Below, in pieces: positions 811 to 55,013 of a stretch of 64,000 nucleotides of DNA (position 1 is the stretch's first letter; each line of letters starts with the position of its first letter). A program made the translations under genes and the position numbers. Under the pieces are notes generated by a model. That model ran no database searches and was not told the origin of the DNA. It saw only the letters and a list, made by a program, of their open reading frames with translations. Source of the stretch: Candidatus Marinacidobacterales bacterium (lineage in GTDB: Bacteria; Acidobacteriota; Vicinamibacteria; Marinacidobacterales; SMYC01); the NCBI GenBank assembly GCA_965237955.1, contig OZ250169.1:1024001-1088000 (forward strand), given 5' to 3'.

Positions 811-840
811 GGGGTTTGTGTAAACTAGTATATAATTCCC
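811..840. repeat. IS1595 right terminal inverted repeat
   Basis: Reverse complement reads GGGAATTATATACTAGTTTACACAAA, resembling IS1595-family termini; directly follows the passenger ORFs. Confidence 0.6.
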
Positions 841-2244
841 TTTGAAATAGGCCATAAATCAGCAACTTAGTGTCTGTGTTTGCGACCGGGCCAAGGGCCG
901 TGGGCTTTACAATCGTCTTGGGCGGGCGGGTCGTCACCATGCAGATGACCACCTAGTCGAGAGCGAATATCGAAGCGTGTTCCTGAAGCGGTTTCCACGC
1001 TACGCCGGTCGAGCCCGCCGAGGGGCTACCGTCGCCGGCGACCATCTACGCGGCACGGCAGTAGTAGTTGAGAATGCCCACAAGTCGCTCTCGCGACACG
1101 ATGGGGCCAGCGTCATTCGCGCTTGCCGGCAGAGGTGTGATGAGCTCGTTGCCGAGACCTTGGTGGTTCCGTTCTGTGTGATAGTGCACTACGTATTCGG
1201 TTACCGCTGTGCGCAGGTGTCGCTCACTGAGAGGTACGAAGCGGTCGAGACACTCTCGACGTATGGAGAGAACGAATCTTTCCGCATATGCGTTCAGATT
1301 CGGACTATTAGCGGGAAGGCGAAGGGGCTTCACGCCTGAATCTCTCAACAGCCCACGTACCGCCTCGGTGAATAGCGGGTCCCGGTCGTGGATGAGGTAT
1401 CGCTTGCCAAGGAGGAAACCATCCCACATGTCAGTGAGGTTTCTTACCACCTGCTTCATCCACTCCCCGTTGGGGTCCGACGTTATCCCACCGATGCACA
1501 CGCAGCGAGTGGCGATATCGATGACAAACAGGACATGGTAGCGGACGAGCCCGAACGGGTTCACAACCTCGACGGTGAACAGGTCTGTCGCAGCGATGGC
1601 GCCCCAATGAGCCTTGATGAAGGTGCTCCACGACATGCTCCTGCCCCGCTCCGGCGCAGGAGCGATACCGTGCTCGGCGAGGATCCTCTTGATAGTGTTG
1701 CGTCCGAGTTCATGTCCTAGGTTCTTGAGTGCGCCTCGCAGGCGCGTATATCCCCACGTCGGGTTCTCCCGCGCCACGCGCACAATGAGCTCACGGATGT
1801 CCTTCGCCGTCGGAGGTCGGCCTGGACTCCGGTTCTTGCTGCCATCGTAGTTGGCTGCAATGAGGTGGCGGTACCAGCGCAGAAGCGTAGCGGGTGTGGC
1901 AACGGACGCAATCTGGGCCAGCGCCTCGCGGCCCAAAGCCTGGGCCTTGACGGCGAGCCTGCGCCGGTCGTCGTCCGAGAGACTGAGACGCTTGCCCCGA
2001 AGCCCGGCTCGGAGCACACGGTTCTCCTCTTGCAGGTAGTCGATCACATCCTGCTGCTGGCGGTTGACCCAGCCAGCTAGAACGAGCAGTAGGAATTGCA
2101 CGTGGTACGTCATCATGGATCTGAAGATAACACCCTCGGGCCAGACGATTGTAAAGCCTACGGCCCTTGGCCCCGGCGCAAACACAGACACTAAGCTGCT
2201 GATTTATGGCCTATTTCAAAAGGGCCGAGTTTTGGCACAGGACG
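841..2244 (-). mobile_element. rve-integrase element with CGTCCTGTGCC-type ends
   Basis: End CGTCCTGTGCCAAAACTCGGCCC at 2244 (-); ~78-bp inverted repeat 841-918 / 2143-2220. Confidence 0.75.
1046..2116 (-). CDS. DDE integrase-core (rve) transposase, apparently intact
   Basis: [17 protein letters not shown]; DDE motifs ATDLF, LIHDRD, NAYAERF; C-terminal NYYCRAA. Confidence 0.9.
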
Positions 2245-5038: not shown

Positions 5039-5332
5039 ATGCGGGTCATCGCGAAGCGGACACTGCGCGCTTATTGGGAAAAGGACCGCAGGGCAGAACA
5101 ACCGCTGAAGGCATGGTATGCGATCGCAGCGAAAGCCGAGTGGTCCTCTCCGGCGGACGTAAAGGCTGTTTATGGAAATGCCAGCATCGTTGGAAACGAC
5201 CGGGTTGTATTTAATATCGGCGGGAACAGGTATCGGCTTGTCGTCCGTTTCGACTATGCGAGCCGGATCGGATTCGTGCGTTTCGTGGGAACGCACGCCG
5301 AATACGATGCGGTCGATGCATCCAATGCCTAG
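5039..5332 (+). CDS. higB: Type II TA toxin HigB
   Basis: MRVIAKRTLRAYWE...RVVFNIGGNRYRLV...FVGTHAEYD. Confidence 0.93.
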   Translation: MRVIAKRTLRAYWEKDRRAEQPLKAWYAIAAKAEWSSPADVKAVYGNASIVGNDRVVFNIGGNRYRLVVRFDYASRIGFVRFVGTHAEYDAVDASNA

Positions 5333-5341
5333 GAGTGCAAC

Positions 5342-5716
5342 ATGAACATCAAACCGATCAAGAGCGAAGCCGACTACGACGCCGCGTTAACCGCGATCGA
5401 CGGCCTGATGGGCGCCGCGCCGGACACGCCCGAAAGCGACAAACTTGAGGTTCTCGTTACCCTTGTAGAAGCTTACGAAGCCGAGCGCTGGCCGATAGAG
5501 GCACCGGATCCGATCTCGGCGATTGAGCACGTCATGGAGGCCCGTGGCCTGCGCCAGAAAGACTTCGGAGCGCTGATTGGCTCCCAGCCACGTGCTTCGG
5601 AAGTGCTCAACCGACAGCGCCCGCTCACTCTGCCGATGATCCGAGCCCTGTCGATCGGATGGAACCTTCCTGCCGACGTGCTTGTACGCGAGTACGACCT
5701 CGCGAACACGACATAA
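5342..5716 (+). CDS. higA: Type II TA antitoxin HigA (HTH)
   Basis: IKPIKSEADYDAAL...LVEAYE...PDPISAI...SEVLNRQRPLTLPMIRAL. Confidence 0.93.
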   Translation: MNIKPIKSEADYDAALTAIDGLMGAAPDTPESDKLEVLVTLVEAYEAERWPIEAPDPISAIEHVMEARGLRQKDFGALIGSQPRASEVLNRQRPLTLPMIRALSIGWNLPADVLVREYDLANTT

Positions 5717-5896
5717 CATATAGGAACCAACTACCTGTGTTCCGCAAAAACTCGATCCGTCGTTGATTCCGCAGTTTAGAGCTGCAAGGATTGGCCGTTT
5801 CGCGACGAATGGATGAGGTGATCCGACGTCATTGTAAACGTCGAAAGGTTCGCTCTTGCGGTCTATTTCAAAAGGGCCGAGTTTTGGCACAGGACG

Positions 5897-6961
5897 CGGT
5901 CCAGCCGTCGGCCGCGACCACGTCTCAAGACCAGCTTCAGTTTCTCTTTCAGCCGTTTCACTGACTCCGGAGCCACTTTCAGCCGGGGCGTACGGTGCAC
6001 GGTAACGCTATACCCCAGAAATTTTCGTCTCCAGGGGCGCGCCACCGCGCTCTTGTCCCGATTGACCTTCAGCCGGAGACGTTCCCATAGGAACTTCTCT
6101 AGTGATTCCATCACCCGTTCGCCTGCGCGCCGCGACTGCACGTACACGTTACCGTCATCGGCGTATCGGCAGAAACGATGCCCACGTCGTTCCAGTTCTT
6201 TGTCCAGCTCATCGAGCAGGACATTACTGAGCAACGGGGACAGCGGGCCACCTTGCGGCGTCCCTTCGCGTCGGGGCGACACCACTCCACCCTCCATCAT
6301 TCCCGCCTGTAAATAGCGACGAATGAGACGGAGGACCTGTGGGTCCTTCACTCGTCGGGCGCCGCGACATCAGGATGTCGTGGTTCACTCGGTCAAAGAA
6401 CTTTTCCAGGTCCAGGTCCACCACCCACCGGTAACCCGCTGTCATGTGAAGACGGGACCAGCTCACTGCTCCCAAAGCGCTACGTCCCGGACGGAAGCCA
6501 AAGCTCCATTTCGAGAACGTAGGCTCGAACAGCGGCGTGAGAACCTGTAGCAGGGCTTGTTGGATCATTCGGTCCAGCACCGTCGGGATACCCAGCATGC
6601 GAGTTCCTTTTCCTCCCGGCTTCGGTATCTCTACCTTTCTCACCGGGGCGGGATGGTACTCGCCGCTTCGTATCTCTTCTCGGATGCGCGACCAGTGCTC
6701 ACGGCAGTACGCTATTAGCTCGTCCACGGTTATTCCGTCGACTCCTGGCGCACCGCCGTTTGCCACCACTCGCTTATGCGCTTTCATCATGTTCTCTCGG
6801 CGCAGCACCTCCTCGATGAGCAGCAAAGCCTCGTCGTTGGCTTTGTCTCCACGTGCCGTGAGCGCTTGACGCGCAGAAGTCGTATCCTCAGCGGTTCCGC
6901 CGCCTACTTTCCGATTCCGCTCCGGCTTCTCAGCCTTCTGCTCTGCGTCTTGTTCTCTCAT
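5897..6961 (-). pseudogene. ltrA: Group II intron reverse transcriptase/maturase (class C-like), frameshifted near 6360 and 3'-truncated
   Basis: GAPGVDG, LGIPTVLDR, DLEKFFDRVNHD, GTPQGGPLSPLL, RYADD; cut at 5896 by a CGTCC end. Confidence 0.9.
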
Positions 6962-7122
6962 CGAACGTTTCGAGCCAACTCGGCTCCTCGTGTTCGGTCC
7001 TTTACCGCTGTGCGCTGCGGTTTAGTATGACCTCGGCTGACTTCTGCTCATCCATCGCCACGCTTCTCAGCGTTGCTAGCCCTGTGGCAGACAAGCAGAT
7101 CTCCCAGGGTAAGGCGCGTGAC
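6962..7122 (-). ncRNA. Remnant of group IIC intron RNA upstream of the RT ORF
   Basis: CCTTACCCTGGGAGATCTG and GAAGTCAGCCGAGGTCATA motifs typical of IIC introns; 5' part replaced by IS21. Confidence 0.6.
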
Positions 7123-9651: not shown

Positions 9652-10110
9652 GCGAGCGAGGGACCACAGCGTCGATGCGATAAAAACGGGTGAAACCGCC
9701 AAACCCGGGGTACCAGACGATGCGGCGCCAAAACGACGCGCGAGAATGCCTCAGGAAGCGTCTTCTCGAGCCAGGCCATACCCCAGCAACCCCCCGAAAC
9801 CAGCCCCACATCGCCCGGGGTTCGGCCGCGGCAGGTCGCTGCCTACGGGAGCGGGAAGGTCGCTTCGCGTCTTTCCTTACGCCCGCTCCCTCCGGCACCG
9901 ACCTGCCGCCCCTTGCTACACAACACGCAGGTAAGATAGGTTCACGTTTTCAATCAGTGGGAAGGAGGTCACCCAACACTTCATCGCTTCGATGAGCGTT
10001 CGGCTTCACCGGATTCGCTGTTCAGCTTGCTCTGGATTCGGCGTTCACGATGGCGGGAATACGCAGCTTGCTGCTAACCGAGCCCATTCACGAAGTGGGC
10101 GCTGGCAGGC

Positions 10111-10983
10111 TCACAGCGTTTTGACGAGCACTCGCTGTTTCTCCCAATCGTCGGGAAGTGGATGATGCAAGAGGTAGCTCGAGGTCAGCCCAACGGGCTG
10201 GCGGCCTTCGACAATGGCGCGGACGATGTCGGGAGCCAGGAAGGCATAACGGATTGCCTTGCGCACGCGGTCCGTTGGTATGGCGTCTTCGGTGGCAATC
10301 TGCTCATAGGTTTTGCCTGCTTTGATCCGGTCGAGCCAGGAGAGGGCGTTAGCGATATTGCGCAGGAGTGTGCGGTCGACGGATTTCGTGGGGTTGCCCA
10401 GAACGAGCTTGGTCTCGACGCCGCGTAGGCGCAAGCGGAACGGTGCGCGGATACGGAGTGCATCCTCGCGAATGCGCTCGGGTCCCATAGAGAGGCAAGC
10501 AGCGAACGCATTGCGGTCGAGCAGGATGGACACAGAGCCGGGGCTGATATCGACCCGCCGGATAAGACGGAGCAGGGGGGCTGCCGAGGCACTATCATCA
10601 TTGCTACCGGAACACAGCCCGTCTAAAAAGCGACGCACCGAGGCGAGCTCTTGCATCGTCGGAGTGTGGATCAACGAGGCCGAGAAGGTCGTAGCATCCA
10701 CATGCTGTCGGATGAGATGCACGACGGTCTGTTCCAGCATCGGGGCGGGCAGTCGCCAGCCGGAGAGGTCCTTTTGGCCACTGTGCTGGATGAGGCGCCG
10801 GGAGACGTAGTAGCGGAGCCGTTGCCCGTTTTTCTTTTTGGTGTGGCTCGGCGTCAGCCGGTCCCCGGTCTCGTCGAAGAGCTTGCCTGCCAGTGGGGAA
10901 CGGGCTGCACGGCCCTTCGTCGTGCGTCTCCTTGGTTTGGCAGCCTCTGCCTGCAGCTGCGTTTGGACCGCGTCCCAGAGCTC
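10111..10983 (-). pseudogene. C-terminal half of a large serine recombinase
   Basis: ELWDAVQ...[21 protein letters not shown]...LRYYVS...AFLAPDIVRAIVEGRQP...LPDDWEKQR. Confidence 0.8.
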
Positions 10984-11888
10984 GTGGTGGGGATGGCGAA
11001 GTCGAATCCGAAGTGGGGGTATACACGCATTCGCGGCGCCCTCTCGAATCTCGGCCATATCGTAGCCAGGAGCACCATCGCCAATATTCTGCGAGAACAT
11101 GGCATCGAGCCTGCGCCGGAGCGAAGTGAGCGAACGCCATGGCGCACGTTTCTCGCCGCCCATTGGGAAACCGTTGCTGCGACCGACTTCTTCACCGTCG
11201 AGGTCGCCACAGTTCGCAGGCTCGTGACCTACTACGTGCTCGTCGTCGTCGAGCTGTCTTCGCGAAAAGTACACATTGCCGGAATAACTCCCGGGCCAGA
11301 TGGCCCGTTCATGATGCAGGTCGGTCGGAATCTCACCGACCCATTCGACGGCTTTCTGCGCGGCAAGCGATTCCTCATCCTGGACCGCGACAAGAAGTTC
11401 ACCACGGAGTTTCGCGATTTGCTGGAGCACGCCGGAACGGACGTCATTCGGCTGCCGCACCGTTCGCCGAATCTGAACGCTTACGTCGAAAGGTTTGTTT
11501 TGTCGATCAAGAGCGAGTGCTTGGAGCGGATGATCTTTTTCAGTGAGCCATCGCTGCGTCGTGCCGTCACTGAGTTCATCCATCATTATGACGGAGAGCG
11601 CAACCATCAAGGGCTTGGGAATGCGTTGCTCGAAGCGGAAGAATGCGTCGGCAGTCCTCACGGGAAAGTGCGATGTCGTAAGAGATTGGGCGGCTTGCTC
11701 AGCTATTACCACCGCGACGCCGCATAGGAGTTCGGGCGCGCCAGCTGGACGTAACGGATGGTTTGGAGGAGAGGTCTGCTCGGGAGCGCCTATCGCAGAG
11801 CCAGTGCCGCGTCGGCTGGTCTCCGTGAATCTCGAGAACGCCTCCAGGATTCGAGCTTTCGGCTCCGTTCGCATTTTCGGACACGACG
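10978..11888 (+). mobile_element. 5'-truncated rve-integrase element (ORF remnant to 11727) with right end
   Basis: Inverted near-copy of 27300-28209; joined to the recombinase through GAGCTC microhomology. Confidence 0.85.
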
Positions 11889-16792: not shown

Positions 16793-17100
16793 ATGAAAGA
16801 CAATAAAACGATTGCCGAGCTGACATCGGAGTTGGTGGCACAGGTGGAGAAGCTGCTGCATAAGCTAGTTCCACGAATCACCGCTGTTCTTGCTGAGCCG
16901 GACGCTGCTGAGCCGGACGCTGCCAAGCCGGACGCTGCTGAGCCGGAGGCTGCTGAGCCGGACGCTGCTGAGCCGGACGCTGCCGAGCCAGAGGCTGCCG
17001 AGCCAGAGGCTGCTGAGCCAGAGGTGCTGAGCCGGAGGCTGCTGAGCCGGAGGCTGCTGACGATGGCGATTCGCAATCCCCGGAAGACCGCGCAAAGTAA
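16793..17100 (+). pseudogene. Small acidic protein with (AAEPD/E)n repeat, frameshifted near 17023
   Basis: RBS GAGAGG; after correction the repeat frame ends ...DDGDSQSPEDRAK*. Confidence 0.45.
16891..17059 (+). repeat. 15-bp tandem repeat GCTGCTGAGCCGGA[C/G], about 11 units
   Basis: Directly visible. Confidence 0.9.
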
Positions 17101-19578: not shown

Positions 19579-19689
19579 CGTCCTGTGCCGAAACTCGGCC
19601 CTTTTGAATGGTTGGAGAAGATTGTGATCCGCAAAAAAAGGAAGAACGCGTATCGGCGGGCAGAAGAAAACGCCCCCGATGCCGACACC

Positions 19690-19836
19690 CCATTAGACTG
19701 GACTTTGCGGCGCAAAAGAGCGAACGTCGGGTGATGCTGAAGGATACAGGGGTTAGCCAGGAATGTCGTTCTGGACGGTTTGGACCTCGCCAGCCTGCGG
19801 CGGGTCTGGGAGCAGACCTCTGGGGCTGCTCCTCCA
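19690..19836 (+). pseudogene. Truncated second copy of the DUF2924 5' region
   Basis: Homologous to 26105-26249, including ATTAGACTGGACTTT. Confidence 0.75.
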
Positions 19837-19868
19837 CGTTCGCTCTCAAGCGCGAGAGGAACTAATAA

Positions 19869-20753
19869 ATGCCGTCCGATTCGGAAGACCGGAACATCGA
19901 GCAGCCGGAAGAAAGTGCGGTTTCCGAACCCGTCCTGACGGACGATGGCGAGTCCCTCCGGCATTGGCTCCTCGTCCCTGCCGGAGTCGTCGGGATTGCT
20001 TTTGTCGTGGGAATCGTCCTGTACTTTCTCCTTACTGGCGGAGGTATCGACGAGGCTCCCGACGCACTCGAGGCGCCGACGAGCACCGTGGCAGAGCCGG
20101 CTGCGCCACCGTCCGGCGAGACGGGAGCTCTCCCCGAGGCGGCGCCGATCGTTTTGCCACCGCTGTCCACCAGCGATGACTTCGTCCGCGCGATGGTCGA
20201 GAAGCTCTCCGCACATCCCGTGCTGGCGTCGTTTGTGGTGACCGAGCAGCTCGTTCGCAAAGCGGTGGTCGTCGTGGCCAACGTTGCGGAAGGGCTCAGC
20301 CCGGCTCGTTTGTTCCCGCATCTACGACCGGAGGAGCGGTTCGAGGTCGCCTCCCACTCGGGCCGACTCGTCATCGACGCGGAGAGCTACCATCGATATA
20401 ACACGTACGTCGACCTCCTCGTTTCCCTCGATTCTGCTGGCCTCGTCGAAACGTACCGCAATGTGAGACCCCTGATCGACGAGGCGTATCAGGAACTCGG
20501 CTACGGCGAGCAGCCATTCGAGGACGTTCTGACCATGGCCTTCGCGGTCGTTCTGAAAACACCCATTGTTCGGGGTGATATGGCCGTCGAGACAGTAAGC
20601 GTCAACTACACTTACTCCGAGCAGTGGATCGAAGACCTCCCGCCCGTTCAGAGACAGCTTCTTCGCATGGGACCGGACAACGTCCAGCGGATCCAGGCGA
20701 AGCTACGGGAGATCGCGGTCGAGTTCGGTCTTCGTCTGCCCGCCGAGGGCTGA
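19869..20753 (+). CDS. DUF3014 family protein
   Basis: One TM segment, Pro-rich linker, LPPLSTSDDFVR, SYHRYNTYV, QLLRMGPDN. Confidence 0.85.
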   Translation: MPSDSEDRNIEQPEESAVSEPVLTDDGESLRHWLLVPAGVVGIAFVVGIVLYFLLTGGGIDEAPDALEAPTSTVAEPAAPPSGETGALPEAAPIVLPPLSTSDDFVRAMVEKLSAHPVLASFVVTEQLVRKAVVVVANVAEGLSPARLFPHLRPEERFEVASHSGRLVIDAESYHRYNTYVDLLVSLDSAGLVETYRNVRPLIDEAYQELGYGEQPFEDVLTMAFAVVLKTPIVRGDMAVETVSVNYTYSEQWIEDLPPVQRQLLRMGPDNVQRIQAKLREIAVEFGLRLPAEG

Positions 20754-21290
20754 GCCCGCTCCCAGCAGGTGTTTGCTCACTGAATATTTAGAGCCTGCAA
20801 TCTCATTCAATCAGGACTCTGGCGGACAGCCAGTTAGGCTGTGATCCGCAAAAAAGCAGATCCCGTCCTGTGCCAAAACTCGGCCCAGCCGGCATCGACG
20901 AAAGAACTGCGCCTCTCGAAATCAGGCGAAACTCTAGCACACGAACAGGTTACGCGGCGGTCACCAACACTTGACTGCGGAAGCACCTTCGAGCGCGCAG
21001 CCGGACGGTAAGGTCAGGGCAAGGGCAACAACTCCCTCGAATCCTTCACCATCATCACGACGACGGCCTGTCCCCGTCCTGTGCCAAAACTCGGCCCTTT
21101 TGAAATAGACCGCAAATCAACAGCTTAGAGGCCCTTGGAATCCGCGCAGAATCCAGGGTATTTCGCGCCGCAGGGCTGGCTTCCGACCCCTGGGCTGCGG
21201 GTGGCGGGCGACAGGCCCACCGGGGGTGCGCACGGCCGGCTCAAATCGGCTGCGGGGCGAGCTTGCAGGCAACGAACTACGCACCCGGAA

Positions 21291-22096
21291 GGAATACGTA
21301 TCCGACCGCGATGCCGGATTCAAGCAACGCGCTTTACCTGCAGGTGCTCCACGGTATGCGGACCGACGATCCGTCGTACGTGGTCAAGGTCGACAAGATG
21401 ACCGGCGAGACGCTGTGGTACATCGAGCGGCCGACGACGGCACGGCGCGAGTCTCCGGATTCTTACACGACGCCGACGTGGCTCGAGTACGACGGCAAGA
21501 CGGAACTCGTCATCACCGGCGGGGATGCGGTCACCGGGCACGATCCCGACACCGGCCGAGAACTCTGGCGCGCGAACGTCCTCAATCCCCAGAACAACGG
21601 GGCCTACCGGATCATCGCCTCGCCGACGATCATGGGCGATCTGATCGTCGCGCCGAGTCGGGTGCGGCCCATGGTCGCGATCCGGCCGGGCGGCAGCGGT
21701 GACATCGGCGACACGCACGTCGCGTGGGAGTTCGACCGAGGCCCCGACGTGCCGACGCCGGTGAGCGCCGGCGAGTATGTCTACGTCGTGACCGACCGCG
21801 GCGTGGCCTACTGTCTGAGGCTCGACACGGGCGAGGTCGTCTACGGCCCCGAGCGTTTGCCGAGCGGCACCTACAGCTCGTCTCCCATCCTCGCCGACGG
21901 CAAGATCTACGTCTCGACCGAGGAGGAGGGCCTGTGGACCGTGTACCGGACCGGGCCGGAATTCGAGATCCTCGCGTCAAACTCGTTCGACGACGGCTGC
22001 ACGCCGTACTGCCTCAGCTCGGTGGCGGTGTCACAGGGCCAGCTGTTCATTCGCTCGAGCGCCAACCTCTGGGTAGTCGGCGAACGTAGACATTAG
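21291..22096 (+). pseudogene. PQQ-like beta-propeller protein, 5'-truncated
   Basis: Repeats DKMTGETLW, DPDTGRELW, SSPILADGKIY. Confidence 0.8.
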
Positions 22097-22180
22097 CTGG
22101 TGTCCCCCCAGTCCCCTCTAATCAACCTGGGTCGGGGAGAGATGGGGGAAACGGAAGATCAGTCCATTATCGGCTTCTCG

Positions 22181-22414
22181 TCAACCGTCATCCGTCAGGC
22201 CCAACGTTCGGTCCAGATCTGCGAACTGCTTCGCGTCCTCGAAGCCGGCGACCATCTCCGGCGAGTTCATCGCGTGGTCCATCGCTGCCGCGTCGTCGAA
22301 CCACAACTCACCGATGCTATCCGGGGCGGCCTCCACAGGAGCGGACGTGACGTAGTTCTTAGGTCCTTGGTATAGAGCAGGCGGGCCCTTGGTCAAGGCG
22401 GTGCGGGTGGCCTC
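22181..22414 (-). pseudogene. EthD-family fragment
   Basis: DSIGELWFDDAAAMDHAMNSPE...DAKQFAD. Confidence 0.6.
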
Positions 22415-22678
22415 AGGGCCGGCGACAAAATAAGTTCCCGTTTTCAAGACGGTCGGATGGTGTAGTTCCATTTGGGTAGAGTCTGGTCCTTTGTAACGGA
22501 AAGCGCCTGCATCCGCTCGTCAGTGATTTTGACGCCCTTCGGATAACGACGCCGGATAAGGTGTGCGCGTACTCGCAAACCGGAAGAGGTGGTGGTCGTG
22601 CGGATGTATTTGAGGATGGTTTCGTAGCTGTCGAGAGGCCTGCCCGCCCAGTTCTTGCTGATCTCGCTGAACAGACGG
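22415..22678 (-). mobile_element. ISAzo13-family transposase C-terminal fragment with terminal IR
   Basis: RLFSEISKNWAGRPLDSYETI...YPKGVKITD...WNYTIRPS*. Confidence 0.8.
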
Positions 22679-22995
22679 CGTCCTGTGCCAAAACTCGGCC
22701 CTCTTGAAATAGCCGATAAATCAGCAGCTTAGCGTCTGTGTTTTGCGACGGTGCCAAGGGCTGTGGGCTTTACAATCGTCTGGCCCGAGGGTGTTATCTT
22801 CGGATCCATCATGACGTACCATGTGCAAATCCTACTGTTGGTCAGGCAGCCGTTGTTCGATCGGGCAGCCCTGCTGCTCACACAGACCTCATGGGTGCTT
22901 CCGCCATTAAGTGTTGGTAAAATGACGCTAAGACTTTGCGGTGCATTAAATTACAGCCATGGTCTTCCAAAAGGGCCGAGTTTTGGCACAGGACG
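22679..22995. mobile_element. 317-bp non-autonomous derivative of the CGTCC rve element
   Basis: IR CGTCCTGTGCCAAAACTCGGCCCT at both ends; contains the first codons of the transposase. Confidence 0.8.
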
Positions 22996-23092
22996 GGGTG
23001 CCGGGTGTGCAATTTTCGTCCGCCACTAACAGCTCATTGCGAAGCTCCTCGACTTGCCTGGTCGTGAAGACATCCATCCTCCTGCGAACCTC

Positions 23093-23683
23093 TCACTGGG
23101 AACAATGGTCGAGAATCTGCTTCTTGCGCCCCGAACAGCAAGTTTCGGAACTGAAATAGGAAGCCCACAGGATGTCGGCAAACCCCTTGCCCGGCATCGT
23201 GGCTCCCTGCTGCTCCCGGTTCTGCATTAGCGCCGTACCCACGCCGGGAACGTAGGTCAACTCCATGCTGTCTCCCTTCTCCAGGTCCTTTTCAAAGTAG
23301 CCTAGGAAGGTATCGATCTGAGATCGGATACCGGGGGAGCCGCCGGGCGGCAAGTTCTTATCGAGAGCATCTTCGAGCGCGTCGGCCATATTCTTCGCGT
23401 CGACGTCGCGGAGCAGATCGATACGGAGAGATTTTGCCCCATCCATCGAGATCAGCATCTGCGGATCGCAGGTGCGGTTCTCGGCATACGCGCCCATCGT
23501 GTAGACGTCAAGCCACCACCGCTCACGAAGTCCGGCACCGATCAACATGAGAGTCCGGACACCTACCTCTGCCGTGTCCGCGTATGTGTTTCCCTTTACC
23601 GTCTGGGTTTTCGCCGATAGGGGCACTATCGACGACGCCATCAGCACGATGGCGCCCAGCGGCGTCACGGTTCGATTGCTCAT
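23093..23683 (-). CDS. Chalcone isomerase-like exported protein
   Basis: Signal peptide; LIGAGLRERWWLDVY, LTYVPGVGT. Confidence 0.8.
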   Translation of the reverse strand: MSNRTVTPLGAIVLMASSIVPLSAKTQTVKGNTYADTAEVGVRTLMLIGAGLRERWWLDVYTMGAYAENRTCDPQMLISMDGAKSLRIDLLRDVDAKNMADALEDALDKNLPPGGSPGIRSQIDTFLGYFEKDLEKGDSMELTYVPGVGTALMQNREQQGATMPGKGFADILWASYFSSETCCSGRKKQILDHCSQ

Positions 23684-23760
23684 GGTCTTTTCCTCCGAGG
23701 CTTAGTCAACCTGTCACACCTCGCTCAAAACCACCAGTCGTCGTTGTCGGCGACTCCCCT

Positions 23761-24750
23761 CTAGGGTTCATCGGTCGGCGCCGACGTGTTGATGTCTGGG
23801 TAGAGCCACGAGTGTTCGAGTCCGGCGTGTCGCTTCCCGTATCGTTCCGGTATGTTCTGTGTCCAGTTGCTGGGCAACGTCAGACAGCACACCAGTAAAA
23901 CAACGAGTACGATTCTCTGTAACACGAATGGCGCTTTTTCAGGCGGGGCTTCCACCTCCAGTGCCTCTCTGGCACCACTTCGCAGCCGACCCAGACGCCG
24001 AATGCGCGATCGGATCAAAAAAACGACACCGATCGACACCATGATGAGGTTCAGGGTCTGCCCGGTCCCGAGAGCCAGACGGTGAGTCGGATAGTCGCGA
24101 AACAGATCAATGAATACACGCAAGAACGCATACCAGAAGACGAAACGAGCTGCGGTTGCCCCCGGCGTTGGGTTCATCTTTCGAACACGGAGGAGGAAAG
24201 GCACCAGCAGAAGATTCTTGATGCCGTCATAGAGAACCACCGGATGCCGGATTCCAACTGCGTCGGGAAACCGCACGCCCCACGGCACATCGGTGAGAGC
24301 ACCCACGATCTGGCCGTCGATGAAGTTCCCGATCCTTCCCATTCCCATCAGAAACGAACCGGGGATCACGACTGCATCGAACAGCGCGAGCAGGTCCTTT
24401 CGATAGAGCAAGGCGAAGGAGGTGACAGCTACAGTCGCTCCGAGAAGGACCCCGTGAGACGCCAGGCCCCCAAGCCAGTATGCCGGAATGAGGGTAGGGT
24501 GCGCGCTGTAGAAGGGCCACTCGTCGAATGCGACTTCGATGAGACGCGCCCCGACCAAAACGCCCACCACGATGAAAAGGGTGAGGGTGTATACGTCTCT
24601 GGAAGTGAGTCCGAGCCGAAGCCTGTGGCGGCGCAGAAACAGATGCAAATGCAGGAATCCCAGCGAATAGCTAAGCCCATACCACCAGAGATAGACGCCG
24701 CCCACTTCGGCAATGATCGGATCGACATTATGGACATAGGGTCCGAACAT
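23761..24750 (-). CDS. lgt: Prolipoprotein diacylglyceryl transferase
   Basis: WYGLSY, GGLASHG, GRIGNFIDG, RHPVVLY. Confidence 0.9.
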   Translation of the reverse strand: MFGPYVHNVDPIIAEVGGVYLWWYGLSYSLGFLHLHLFLRRHRLRLGLTSRDVYTLTLFIVVGVLVGARLIEVAFDEWPFYSAHPTLIPAYWLGGLASHGVLLGATVAVTSFALLYRKDLLALFDAVVIPGSFLMGMGRIGNFIDGQIVGALTDVPWGVRFPDAVGIRHPVVLYDGIKNLLLVPFLLRVRKMNPTPGATAARFVFWYAFLRVFIDLFRDYPTHRLALGTGQTLNLIMVSIGVVFLIRSRIRRLGRLRSGAREALEVEAPPEKAPFVLQRIVLVVLLVCCLTLPSNWTQNIPERYGKRHAGLEHSWLYPDINTSAPTDEP

Positions 24751-24858
24751 CTTTTAAGCTCCCCGTCCTGTGCCAAAACTCGGCCCTTTTGAAACAGACC
24801 AGCTGGTCGAATCTGTTTGTCGCTTCGTGGTCGGCGCGCTCGGCAACGGCACTCACAC

Positions 24859-24999
24859 ATGATCCAGATCGTTCCTCAACTGAAGGTATTGGTGGCTTGC
24901 GAGCCGGTTGATTTCCGCAAGGGTATCGATTCTTTGGCTTGCGTGTGCCGACAACAATTCCATCTCGATCCGTTCCTCGGCACGTTATTCGTTTTTCGT
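24859..24999 (+). pseudogene. tnpB: IS66 TnpB N-terminal fragment
   Basis: EPVDFRKGIDSL...LDPFLGTLFVFR. Confidence 0.85.
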
Positions 25000-25373
25000 T
25001 CATTCTCTCCCTCGCGATTCGACGTTACGACCGTCAGGCTCCCCGATGCGCTCTCTACCGTCAGACGGCACATCGTTCCTTCACCCTGAACCGAGTTCAG
25101 CGGAGGCGTCATCATTGCCGCCCGACAAGCCCATCCCGCCCTGTGCCAAAACTCGGCCCTTTTGAAATAGACCATCAATCAGCAGCTTAGTGTCTGTGTT
25201 TGCGACCGGACCAAGGGCCGTAGGCTTTACAATCGTCTGGCCCGAGGATTCAGGATCAAGACGACATTGCCGGTCCTGTAGCGCAGTGCCGGCCAGGCCG
25301 TCTTGCGGGATAATAGACAGAATCAAGTAGCCCGCGCGCATCGGCTCCGCGCAGGGTTCGAATTGGAGGATTT

Positions 25374-25823
25374 ATGGGGATCGATCCTTTAAGAGCTTCC
25401 TCTTCTTCTCGATGGAGTTACTGGAAGACGCCCGTCCTGTTCGGCGTCGGATTTTGTGTTCTGCAAGTCCTGGTCGCTCTTGTCCGGTTCGGCTCCATGG
25501 ATTCTTGGAATCCAGAGGAGTTGCTGTTTGCGATTCCGGCTTTGTTCTCCGGCTTGGTGCTGTTTTTTCTGGGCGGTGTGCTGGTAGGGTTGCTGGTGCA
25601 ACGCCTCTTGAGAGGAGTTGTCGGAGCCTCGCGGAGCGTTTTACTGATCACGCTCGGGGTGGCGACTCCGCTTGCTGTACTGTTCAGCCTCGTCGGCGGA
25701 TTGCTCGGCCCACATATGGTGGTTATCGGCGTTCTCGCTCCGTATCTGCTCCTGGTCGGAATCCCGCTGTTGCTCCGGCAATGCTGGCAGCGTCTCAGAA
25801 ATCGGCCTCGTCCGAAGGAGTGA
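25374..25823 (+). CDS. Hypothetical four-TM membrane protein
   Basis: GGAGG RBS; four hydrophobic segments. Confidence 0.7.
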   Translation: MGIDPLRASSSSRWSYWKTPVLFGVGFCVLQVLVALVRFGSMDSWNPEELLFAIPALFSGLVLFFLGGVLVGLLVQRLLRGVVGASRSVLLITLGVATPLAVLFSLVGGLLGPHMVVIGVLAPYLLLVGIPLLLRQCWQRLRNRPRPKE

Positions 25824-26147
25824 TCCTGCGGGCTTCGGAGAACCGAACGTTCACAGAATCGTTGAAAGGACCTCGTCTGTCCCCGTCCTGTGCCAAAACT
25901 CGGCCCTTTTGAAATAGACCACAAATCAGCAGCTTAGACGCCCTTGGAATCCGCGCAGAATCGAGGGTATTTCGCGCCGCAGGGCTGGCTTCCGACCCCT
26001 GGGCTGCGGGTGGCGAGCGACAGGCCCACCGGGGGTGCGTACGGCTGGCTCAAATCGGCTGTGGGGCAAGCTACGGGCAGTGAGCTTCACACCCGGAAGT
26101 CCCTCATTAGACTGGACTTTATCGAGCAGAAGAGCGAACGTTCGGTG

Positions 26148-26579
26148 ATGCCGCAGGATATAGGGGTTGGCCGGAACGTCGTTTTGGACGGTTTGGACTT
26201 CGCCAGCTTACGGCGGGTCTGGGAGCAGACCTTTGGGGCTGCTCCTCCAAGCTCGCTCTCGCGTATCTTCCTGCGCCGCGTTCTCTTGCACGAACGCCAG
26301 TGCCGGACCCATGGCGGGCTTTCGGCCGCAACCCGGCGCGCTCTGGCTGCCATGGCGAACGAGACACCAAGCTCCGGCGCTCCCGCAGGGTCCGTTTCTG
26401 CCGGCACCCATCTCGTCCGCGAGTGGAATGGCCGGACCTACCAGGTCGAGGTAGTCGACAACGGCTATCGGTTCGATGGCAAAACCTATCCGTCCCTCAC
26501 TACCATCGCAAAGCGAATCACCGGCACCCACTGGTCAGGACCACGCTTTTTCGGTCTCACGCCCAAGCGCAAGGCCTAA
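26148..26579 (+). CDS. DUF2924 family protein
   Basis: GTHLVREWNGRTYQV...YPSLTTIAKRITGTHWSGPRFFGL. Confidence 0.9.
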   Translation: MPQDIGVGRNVVLDGLDFASLRRVWEQTFGAAPPSSLSRIFLRRVLLHERQCRTHGGLSAATRRALAAMANETPSSGAPAGSVSAGTHLVREWNGRTYQVEVVDNGYRFDGKTYPSLTTIAKRITGTHWSGPRFFGLTPKRKA

Positions 26580-26580
26580 C

Positions 26581-27300
26581 ATGAAGAAGATCCGCTGTGC
26601 CATCTATACGCGAAAGAGCGCGGAAGAAGGTCTCGAGCAGGAGTTCAACTCCCTCGATGCGCAGCGAGAAGCCTGCGCCGCGTATGTCGCGAGCCAGAAA
26701 GCGGAGGGCTGGGTGCTGCTGCCAACCGTCTACGAGGACGCGGGGCTCTCGGGAGGAACCCTGGAGCGCCCGGGCCTGCAGCGCTTGCTCGACGACATCG
26801 ACGCAGGTCTCGTCGACCGGATTGTGGTCTACAAGGTCGACCGACTGACCCGTTCCCTCTCCGACTTTGCGAAGCTCGTCGAACGGCTCGAGGCGGCCGG
26901 CGCGGTTTTCGTCTCGGTGACTCAGTCCTTCAACACCGCGACCAGCATGGGACGACTGACGCTGCATATGCTGCTGTCCTTCGCACAATTCGAACGCGAG
27001 GTCACGGCCGAGCGGATCCGCGATAAGGTCGCTGCCTCCAAGCGCAAGGGACTATGGATGGGCGGCCGCGTGCCGCTCGGCTATGAGAAGGACGGGCGCA
27101 CGCTGTGCATCAACGAGGCTGAGGCCAAAACGGTCCGGACGCTCTATGCGCTGTACCGGAAGCACGGAACGCTCCGGCAGATGAAGGCCGAGGCGGACCG
27201 TCTGAGACTGCGCACCAAGCAACGCTTCGCCGCGGATGGAACCCGGACTGGCGGGCTGCCGTTCCGTCGCGGACACCTCCACTGCCTGCTGACCAATCCC
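26581..27300 (+). pseudogene. Large serine recombinase, N-terminal half
   Basis: RCAIYTRKS, VYKVDRLTRS, SFAQFEREVTAERIRDK; interrupted after LLTNP. Confidence 0.92.
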
Positions 27301-28651
27301 GTCCTGTCCGAAAACGCGAACGGAGCGGCAAGGTCGAATCCTAGAGGCGTTCTCAAAACTCGCGGAGACCAGCCGACGCGGTACTGGCTCTGCGATAGGC
27401 GACCCCGAGCAGACCTCTCCTGCAGACCATCCGTTCCGTCCAACTGGCGCGCCCGAACTCCTATGCGGCGTCGCGGTGGTAGTAGCTGAGCAAGCCGCCC
27501 AATCGCTTACGACATCGCACCTTCCCGTGAGGACTGCCGACGCATTCTTCCGCTTCGAGCAACGCGTTCCCGAGCCCTTGATGGTTGCGCTCTCCGTGAT
27601 AATGATGGATGAACTCAGCGACGGCACGGCGCAGCGATTGCTCACTGAAGAAGATCATCCGCTCCAAGCACTCGCTCTTGATCGACAAAACAAACCTTTC
27701 GACATAAGCGTTCAGGTTCGGCGAACGGTGCGGCAGCCGAATGACGTCCGTTCCGGCGTGCTCGAGCAAATCGCGAAACTCCGTGGTGAACTTCTTGTCG
27801 CGGTCCAGGATGAGGAATCGCTTGCCGCGCAGAAAGCCGTCGAATGGGTCGGTGAGATTCCGACCGACCTGCATCATGAACGGGCCATCCGGCCCCGGAG
27901 TGATTCCGGCAATGTGCACTTTTCGCGAAGACAGCTCGATGACGACGAGCACATAGTAGGCCACGAGCCTGCGAACTGTGGCGACCTCGACGGTGAAGAA
28001 GTCGGTCGCCGCAACGGTTTCCCAATGGGCGGCGAGAAACGTGCGCCACGGCGTCCGCTCACTTCGCTCCGGCGCGGGCTCGATGCCATGTTCTCGCAGA
28101 ATATTGGCGATGGTGCTCCTGGCTACCGTATGGCCGAGATTCGAGAGGGCGCCGCGAATGCGTGTATACCCCCACCTCGGATTTGACTTCGCCATCCCCA
28201 CCACGAGCTCGCTAATCTCGGCCATGACCCGGGGCCGTCCGGGCTGTTTCCGCCGCTCGCTCGCTGTAGTACCACTTCCGCGCAATCAGCCTTCGGTGCC
28301 AAGCCAGAAGGGTTTCCGGTGTGACGATACCGGCGACTTCTGCCAAGAGTTTCCGGCCAAGCGCCTTACCCTTTACCGCGAGCCGACGTCGCTCGTCGTC
28401 TGTGAGACGAAGCTTCCTCCCGCAAAGCCGAGCTTTGAGGACTTTGTTCTCCTCGAGCAAGTAGACCATAGCGGCCTGTTGGTCACGCTGGATCCAACCA
28501 GCGATGGTGATGACCAACAATGTCAAGGGCTGGATCGGCGTGCTCATGACCGAGGATTCTAGCTCCCATTGGCCAATCAAGCGTAGATACGTCTATTCCG
28601 AAACGTCCCGGCGAGCCGGTCTTGAGTTCGTTTGTATTTTTGGACACGACG
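27300..28651 (-). mobile_element. Complete rve-integrase element; transposase 28547-27461 frameshifted near 28265
   Basis: Imperfect IRs CGTCGTGTCCAAAAATACAAACG / CGTCCTGTCCGAAAACGCGAACG; no TSD. Confidence 0.88.
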
Positions 28652-54793: not shown

Positions 54794-55013
54794 GAATAAC
54801 AGGGAATAACAGGGAATAACAGGGAATAACAGGGAATAACAGGGAATTTGGGCCATTTTTGTGCAGATCCGGCCGTTTTTTGACGTGGCAACCCTCTATA
54901 TTTCAAATGGTTAGATGGCAATTCCCTGTTCCGAAATAACAGGGAATTTCTGATGAAAGAACAGGGAAGTGGAAATCGGCGAACAGGGAATTGAGATGGA
55001 CGAATAGGGGAAT
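54794..55013. repeat. (GAATAACAGG)x5 tandem plus dispersed direct and inverted AACAGGGAA motifs
   Basis: Directly visible. Confidence 0.9.

Follow-up and report, generated by a model that had tools for sequence, protein, structure and literature searches.

Duplication-free insertion sequence ends of one polarity likely mark the borders of modules shared between genera in a Candidatus Marinacidobacterales genome

Insertion sequences (ISs) of the IS481 family are described as having 5'-TGT termini, and PMC10045372 gives target-site duplications (TSDs) of 2-15 bp, mostly 6 bp, for them; an IS481 at the joint of a large duplication without a TSD is reported in PMC11708052. For IS1202, TSDs of 5-6, 16-17 or 27-28 bp are described. 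According to PMC7986276, IS911 and IS30 can transfer one end beside an end-like sequence, with the resulting branch processed by the host, while IS26, of the IS6 family, holds cargo between its copies and exchanges flanks at like ends, leaving no new TSD in the conservative route. One-ended telomeric transposons are presented in 10.1101/2024.11.13.623437 as TnsBC/Tn7-like, with the telomere as their other end; 10.1101/2022.12.17.520857 and PMC11410982 are further sources cited here. The present analysis concerns a 64,000-bp stretch (the window; contig OZ250169.1, positions 1,024,001 to 1,088,000, numbered here from its first base) of the 8.13 Mb, single-contig genome of a Candidatus Marinacidobacterales bacterium (G000). 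In this stretch, short ends of an IS that we term family A lie among unrelated genes. An earlier annotation, made from the letters only (the sequence-only reading), had described positions 19579 to 27300 as an integron-like array of cargo between co-oriented orphan ends. The repeats are real, and the framing as an integron-like array is wrong. Judging from sequence comparison, the stretch likely contains a clade of TSD-less, one-polarity ISs whose ends mark the borders of modules shared between genera. Directly observed are the element, its miniature derivatives and sister families, exact junctions of the same polarity without TSDs, and modules that recur in other genera beside other neighbors.

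Facing pairs of ends define family A as an IS of 1426-1430 bp (1.43 kb) with inverted repeats of about 100 bp and one open reading frame (ORF) of 356 amino acids (aa). The genome holds 22 complete copies and 31 copies of two-ended MITEs (miniature inverted-repeat transposable elements) of 134, 317, 329, 345 and 395 bp. Comparison with uninterrupted homologues places the junction just before the 5'-CGT with which the termini begin. The transposase combines a helix-turn-helix (HTH) with an rve_3 (PF13683) DDE core of D-(35)-E spacing, and its catalytic residues D178, D244 and E279 are invariant in 20/20 aligned sequences; the earlier proposal that an rve-type DDE family makes the ends is thereby supported. 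A predicted model (predicted local distance difference test score, pLDDT, 72) matches the folds of IstA, TnsB and retroviral integrase; a fold predicted from a single sequence was set aside (pLDDT 41), and no solved structural relative was found by sequence. The best NCBIfam match is IS481 (NF033577) at 101.9 bits, below the cut-off of 224, and the IS3 model NF033516 scores 84.1 bits, below its cut-off of 160. IS3-family elements have an OrfA/OrfB frameshift arrangement; the family-A transposase is one continuous ORF that lacks such a split. The element is IS481/IS3-related and unclassified, falling below both family cut-offs.

Homologues of this transposase at E<=1e-20, bearing generic names only, were found in 7,994 of the 7,998 candidate protein clusters that were scored, so that the size of the clade is at least 7,994 clusters. 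The literature searched, judged from listings, held no paper on the clade or on such end-rich zones; ISfinder was outside the search, and an earlier name is possible. Sister families B, C and D, with CGT or TGT ends (TGT in family D), co-occur in the same region; the stricter count of family C is 24-61, looser counts including family B. A relative with 36% identity on the Streptomyces plasmid NZ_CP108024.1 (L214:1310-2790) has inverted ends with CC just outside both, which suggests that the CC flank rule set out below may extend to Actinomycetota.

On the evidence of the junctions, we consider it rather probable that the transposase acts on one end at a time, joining it to a one-sided target, GAYCC|NST (the bar marks the junction), and that the stretch is a patchwork of such events in DNA shared between genera. 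The outer edge of the ends is exact, in agreement with the sequence-only reading: across 180 junctions compared with uninterrupted homologues, identity falls from 0.88 at position -1 to 0.38 at position 0. The outer flanks of 473 distinct junctions give the logo SGAYCC, with A at -4 (0.68), C at -2 (0.89) and C at -1 (0.77), and the lost side reads NST in 206 targets rebuilt from homologous copies, which completes the GAYCC|NST site; this site resembles the element's own end. A two-ended insertion would leave both target halves among the junctions, and the pooled logo would then be symmetric at the TSD length. For the 206 sites, symmetry is rejected at every stagger from -8 to 40 (p<=5e-28), and the asymmetry persists in subsamples of n=67 (median p at the best stagger 1.5e-8). 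The controls conform to expectation: an element that we take to be IS903-like, with a presumed 9-bp TSD, is most symmetric at 9 bp (2e-4), and IS21 at 6 bp (0.09); a 9-bp partner elsewhere was found for 4/120 flanks of the IS903-like control. Partner junctions at staggers -8 to 12 were found for 0/174 family-A ends with an uninterrupted homologue, the inverted target motif shows no excess 8-60 bp outward of the ends, and no clean empty site was found, single-copy searches in G009 and G017 returning the left flank only or neither. Taken together, the one-sided target, the missing partner junctions and the missing clean empty sites point to single-end strand transfer. The sister families likewise show asymmetric targets.

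Two-ended copies follow the same pattern. CC is present at both flanks in 21/37 complete elements, i.e., with the same polarity at both ends, and TSDs are at chance level in the 22 full copies and the 31 MITEs, as the sequence-only reading had stated. In related genomes, 25 complete copies show flank matches of 0-3 bp only. Among 20 more distant relatives (mostly about 60% identical and mostly from other phyla), 13 have CGT at both ends and similar flanks, and none of the 20 has an abutting repeat beside its ends. The genome and other loci together provide 259 two-ended elements, some counted twice, of which 142 have homologues of both flanks and 76 have these co-located; no gap below 37 bp occurs among the 76. 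A long fixed TSD of the IS1202 kind was rejected, duplications of 5-6, 16-17 or 27-28 bp being absent and registers up to 40 bp all asymmetric, and an 870-bp repeat around a 14.8-kb composite, which resembled a giant TSD, turned out to be a 33-copy repeat. Back-to-back CGT ends (G000:C1:326432-326457, 7838746-7838772 and 7854559-7854587; G021:C2:671442-671463) have spacers of 11-12, 17 and 23-29 bp, plus one of 1 bp; the cases are few, and the spacing may reflect helical phasing. Junctions of abutted CGT ends with a spacer shorter than 12 bp, the mark of circles or tandem copies in IS3/IS481-type copy-out, are absent from G000; one of 1 bp occurs in G021 among 41 genomes, and none is listed in four sequencing runs. 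At L257:1540-1620 in G009, a 21-bp tandem duplication with target-like borders abuts a sister element end and is absent from G013.

The 11-mer of the ends is present at every position that the sequence-only reading had listed, and the window contains 16 matches at <=1 mismatch, against 1.9±1.3 expected. The features discussed below are as follows.

837..2244, minus strand: family-A IS copy with its 356-aa DDE transposase gene at 1046-2116 and its upstream end at 2244
19579..19608, plus strand: solo family-A end of 30 bp, with a TGT-type sister end next to it at 19623
19869..20753, plus strand: DUF3014 gene, an intact second copy
20840..20995, plus strand: TGT-type sister-end stub, cut after 24 bp by the family-A end at 20864 (target GATCC|)
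21075..21326, plus strand: first 252 bp of the 345-bp MITE; a deletion with 0-1 bp of microhomology has fused it to the PQQ gene
21327..22678, no single strand: PQQ-EthD module with a 5'-truncated PQQ propeller gene (plus), an EthD fragment (minus) and a multi-copy IS-like fragment
22679..22995, no strand assigned: complete two-ended 317-bp MITE, found 15 times in the genome, with TSDs at chance level
22996..24763, minus strand: two intact genes, one chalcone-isomerase-like (23093-23683) and the other a second lgt (23761-24750); G000 has three copies
24764..24801, plus strand: solo family-A end of 38 bp, with three different interiors at the same outer junction in G000
24802..25125, no strand assigned: IS66 scrap, internally inverted in part, with 99% identity to an IS66 of which G021 has multiple copies and G000 one
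25137..25247, plus strand: solo family-A end of 111 bp, its inner side fused to the next module
25248..25883, plus strand: module with a hydrophobic 149-aa ORF (25374-25823) without a family hit
25884..27299, plus strand: unit of an end, DUF2924 and a large serine recombinase, cut at 27299
27300..28651, minus strand: complete 1352-bp sister IS with family B/C ends and a frameshifted transposase

A CGT-type end is present wherever the sequence-only reading had placed one, although not all ends are orphans or of one type: 22679 (plus) and 22995 (minus) bound one complete MITE, 27300 (plus) pairs with 28651 (minus), and the ends at 11888, 12402, 16646, 27300, 28651 and 55154 belong to sister families. 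Its cargo labels were recovered by a family scan (DUF3014, PQQ_2, EthD, Chalcone_3, LGT, IS66 TnpB, DUF2924, Resolvase), except that the ORF it had called a membrane gene has no family hit. PQQ and EthD, which it had separated, form one module with no end between them, and the supposed chalcone isomerase-lgt cassette lies on the outer side of both neighboring ends. An IS1595-type insertion, with an 8-bp duplication, interrupts the second end of the IS copy at 837..2244. A 587-aa chimeric ORF (10111-11874, minus) fuses a sister transposase, after a deletion, to the far part of the serine recombinase. At 5890-7122 (minus), a family-A end and IS21 cut a broken reading that resembles a reverse transcriptase, has a YADD motif and is presumably a group II intron fragment. 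A two-gene pair between clade ends (5040-5716, plus) reads like what we take to be a HigB/HigA toxin-antitoxin module, and short tandem repeats occur at 16890-17060 (15 bp units) and 54795-54850 (10 bp units).

On the inner side, the ends are short, as had been noted: 273/407 non-complete ends (67%) stop within 220 bp, with a median of 114. Classed by their inner side, 104 of the 511 ends in the genome lie in complete elements, 97 break off at a terminus recognised as belonging to this or another element, 138 join sequence that has a homologue elsewhere, and 17 run for more than 2.5 kb. Microhomology of 3-8 bp is present at 13/26 clean inner joins. Since half of the clean joins carry microhomology and many inner sides stop at element termini, the inner sides appear to have been trimmed by microhomology deletions and by other elements. 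One and the same outer junction often carries different interiors: beyond the three at the lgt junction 24764 in G000, the junction at 20864 is the same in G023 with another interior, and seven flank groups that lack an empty copy were classed as carrying different interiors. Of the DUF2924-recombinase unit there are 81 left ends in 76 different flanks, and no right end is common to them. Its far part is reached by 24 copies, which stop at different points, several of them being fused to a facing end. This unit of about 3.5 kb, present in the window at 25884-27299 and 10068-10990, is amplified with one end only, and its long non-coding far part might contain a recombination site.

Genome-wide, the 18-bp end occurs 511 times (267 plus, 244 minus), against about 22 full copies. 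The ends are strongly clustered, in zones totalling about 2 Mb, and none lies between 4.75 and 7.25 Mb (G000:C1:4750000-7250000), although IS21 and IS3 copies are present there; this span contains the GC-skew maximum (6.03 Mb), opposite dnaA at 2.35 Mb. Enrichment of family A within zones was discarded as circular, the zones having been drawn from the ends. The co-orientation that the sequence-only reading had emphasized is at chance level. With complete elements removed, there are 195 strand runs compared with 204±10 after shuffling, and the six same-strand solo ends within 8 kb in the window are the only such run in the genome (0.66±0.78 shuffled, p=0.50). The only strand-biased part is 7.75-8.13 Mb, with 55 plus and 25 minus ends up to the contig end. 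An earlier version of the test, in which all facing pairs <1.6 kb were removed (124 vs 160 runs), was dropped for the bias that this removal introduces and was replaced by the removal of complete elements only. Any anchoring of zones at tRNA genes is weak (4/24 borders within 7 kb, vs 6.9% of random sites). At C1:126836-127455, the largest zone of G000 begins at a distance of 479 bp from tRNA-Ser(tga); G025, from another family, has one zone only, which ends near the same tRNA gene (L253:13590-13675), and both genomes also have a zone that starts a few kb from tRNA-Ser(gct). XerC/D-sized tyrosine recombinase genes lie <=10 kb from a zone border at G000:C1:2813113 and G025:C1:43080, and a 1085-bp IS5/IS903-like element (e.g., C1:135536-136620) has 123/125 of its ends confined to the same zones.

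The cargo is shared well beyond this genome. Family-A ends number 101-535 per genome in 8/40 relatives, spanning five genera and two families; fragmented assemblies may hide ends in others, and several near-complete genomes still have only 0-6. The lgt, DUF3014, PQQ and hydrophobic-ORF cargo is 94-100% identical overall in other genera, with other neighborhoods, and PQQ, chalcone-lgt and the hydrophobic ORF are also present at other places in G000. Thus, the modular, end-bordered cargo of the sequence-only reading does recur, and the order of its modules does not: none of 22 loci in relatives, taken with 1.5-kb flanks, has two adjacent cargo modules in the order of the window. The junction at 19579 is identical in G012 and G018 and has a different outer flank in G013. 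The DUF3014 protein is 97-100% identical in G013, G018, G023 and G033 and partial in G012 and G015; the other copy of the gene in G000, at 3.82 Mb, is 47% identical. The PQQ-EthD module recurs at 99.8% identity in G015 and G013, without family-A-type ends at its borders there. Six of the eight end-rich relatives, from four other genera, carry an lgt with 97-100% identity to that of the window, and a 27% copy lies at 1.60 Mb in G000. The hydrophobic ORF is 89-99% identical in G013, G015, G018 and G021; uninterrupted sites place the junction at 25884.

To extend the comparison, 0.8 Mb each of G013 and G015, picked as end-rich, were aligned with G000. Bases matching at >=93% make up 53% (G013) and 46% (G015), the low-copy part being 25% and 19%, and one core-like stretch of G013 matches at just 70-85%. 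The 368 low-copy shared blocks have a median length of 855 bp and 98% identity, and 240/712 of their borders lie <=8 bp from a clade end, compared with 16±4 in a shifted null. In G025, 28/31 ends lie in one zone of about 135 kb, where 32-79% of each 20-kb piece is shared and none of the two flanking pieces is; sharing also reaches genomes that are not end-rich, such as G009. Whatever the chemistry, sharing across genera amounts to far-reaching recent gene flow: in the end-rich DNA compared from two other genera, roughly half matches this genome at >=93%, as blocks of about 1 kb. Conjugative coupling protein (PF02534) and portal (PF04860) families were absent in 5/5 genomes searched, and no integrase or conjugation family turned up among the 67 of 117 G025 ORFs that were scanned. 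Sponge metagenome is the label of five runs that contain 33-48% of the stretch's words.

We propose that a single end attacks, through its 3'-OH, one strand of the target at an end-resembling site, as at the start of IS3/IS481-type copy-out, and that replication or repair would then turn the branch into a fixed rearrangement (adjacent deletion, duplication or translocation), of which one flank-CGT junction would remain. Inner sides would be trimmed later by short-homology deletions and other elements, not by the family-A transposase, and interiors could be swapped by crossovers in shared end sequence or by a new attack at an existing junction. Serial adjacent deletion, which the sequence-only reading had offered as a simpler alternative, is probably what this single-end reaction itself produces most often, which makes the two ideas compatible. 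The modules would come from related bacteria. Work on homology-facilitated illegitimate recombination leads us to guess at natural transformation anchored at the shared repeats.

Several observations weigh against this proposal. No event has been caught, the targets being inferred from homologous copies and not from parent and daughter genomes, and the inner junctions of 155/511 ends could not be classed. The two-ended MITEs gained new flanks at both ends as they spread (the 317-bp one to 15 copies), so that either two events each or a two-ended route is needed. Most shared-block borders (472/712) lie away from clade ends, and 95% of a nearby peptidase region is shared with G009, a genome that lacks an exact family-A end. 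ComEC is common (4/5 genomes) yet missing from G015. Finally, the IS903-like control in the same zones also shows 0/49 in-place TSDs. TSD loss alone is therefore non-diagnostic here and the asymmetry carries the argument; a Fisher contrast with IS21 and IS3 TSDs was put aside on the same ground.

The last point would fit plain IS decay, in which an ordinary two-ended IS with a short TSD would have lost its footprints through recombination between copies and two-ended adjacent deletions. TSD loss by such routes is documented in PMC11708052, and IS3 retains only 2/9 of its TSDs in the zones; IS21, however, retains 8/16. Decay would also leave both target halves among the junctions, of which one is missing by the asymmetry test, and relatives in other phyla share the pattern, so we regard this explanation as improbable. 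The single-end reaction is inseparable by sequence alone from a concerted version, in which both ends move in one complex and each chooses its own GAYCC|NST, so that a variable stretch of target is deleted or duplicated. The same polarity at both ends of complete copies would fit such a version, as would a full copy that replaces 705 bp within the 33-copy repeat, the clustering of back-to-back spacers at 11-12 and 23-29 bp, and the IS481 that landed without a TSD, the duplication there being of 60 kb (PMC11708052). It is nevertheless unlikely, as 133 facing pairs <15 kb apart lack an in-place long direct repeat, save for the 870-bp case noted above, and as the excess of solo ends and the one-ended recombinase unit would require further events.

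An integron-like system, with cassettes added in order and all facing the same way as the array grows, could draw on the six consecutive plus-strand solo ends in the window, on cargo genes of which several are intact and mobile, and on the plus bias at 7.75-8.13 Mb. Against it stand run statistics at chance, two supposed orphans that are paired, cargo inside or outside the ends, many broken pieces, the unconserved order of modules, and the absence of a tyrosine recombinase gene from the window (0 of the 18 PF00589 matches in G000). Of the earlier proposal, repeated single-ended transfer thus fits the junction statistics, whereas the ordered, co-oriented accretion array is unsupported and, in our estimation, highly improbable. 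Assembly chimerism at repeats is barely credible as a source of the patchwork. The genome is metagenome-assembled, with 6.2% contamination, and none of the compared contigs spans the whole stretch, but contigs of other public runs (one run may be the source sample) extend across the 19579 and 25137 junctions and the inner join at 24801, the modules are only about 1 kb, and the same junctions are present in other genomes.

If single-end transfer is the normal route, TSD-based IS detection would miss or misread a whole clade, and the 356-aa transposase, with its short ends and defined target, would offer a simple system for one-ended DDE reactions that reshape chromosomes. Shared second copies of housekeeping-type genes could also be scored as contamination in assembled genomes. 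More tentatively, and somewhat less probably than not, a very large unnamed clade of DDE ISs may have abandoned concerted two-ended integration and act as a single-end splicer at a target that mimics its ends; in these Acidobacteria, its thousands of ends would make megabase zones a communal gene pool, cut anew into 1-kb modules that pass between genera and families.

Compared with the systems described above, family A shares with IS481, its best NCBIfam match, a single ORF with an HTH and an rve_3 DDE core of D-(35)-E spacing; it differs in its 5'-CGT ends and its sub-threshold score (101.9 bits vs 224), and the TSD-less outcome appears to be its rule. IS1202 and IS481EU have a related DDE core, and the step of about 10 bp between their length classes is reminiscent of the 11-12 and 23-29 bp spacers, whereas family A is without such duplications or a symmetric register to 40 bp. 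As with IS911 and IS30, the target resembles the element's own end; in those elements this is a side reaction beside normal insertion with a TSD, while family A shows one polarity only and hundreds of short, degenerate sites. Cargo between repeated copies recalls IS26 arrays, which are built by an unrelated transposase from whole copies in direct repeat with 8-bp TSDs, in contrast to the stubs and MITEs in both orientations that predominate here; the same junction with different interiors is seen for family A, and homologous recombination would yield this as well as IS26-type flank exchange. Telomeric transposons likewise form units bearing one transposon end, whereas family A is a single-ORF IS at internal sites. 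Integrons, too, hold unrelated small cargo between repeats; here, DDE ends take the place of attC, the window has no integrase, and the cargo has no shared orientation and includes many broken pieces.

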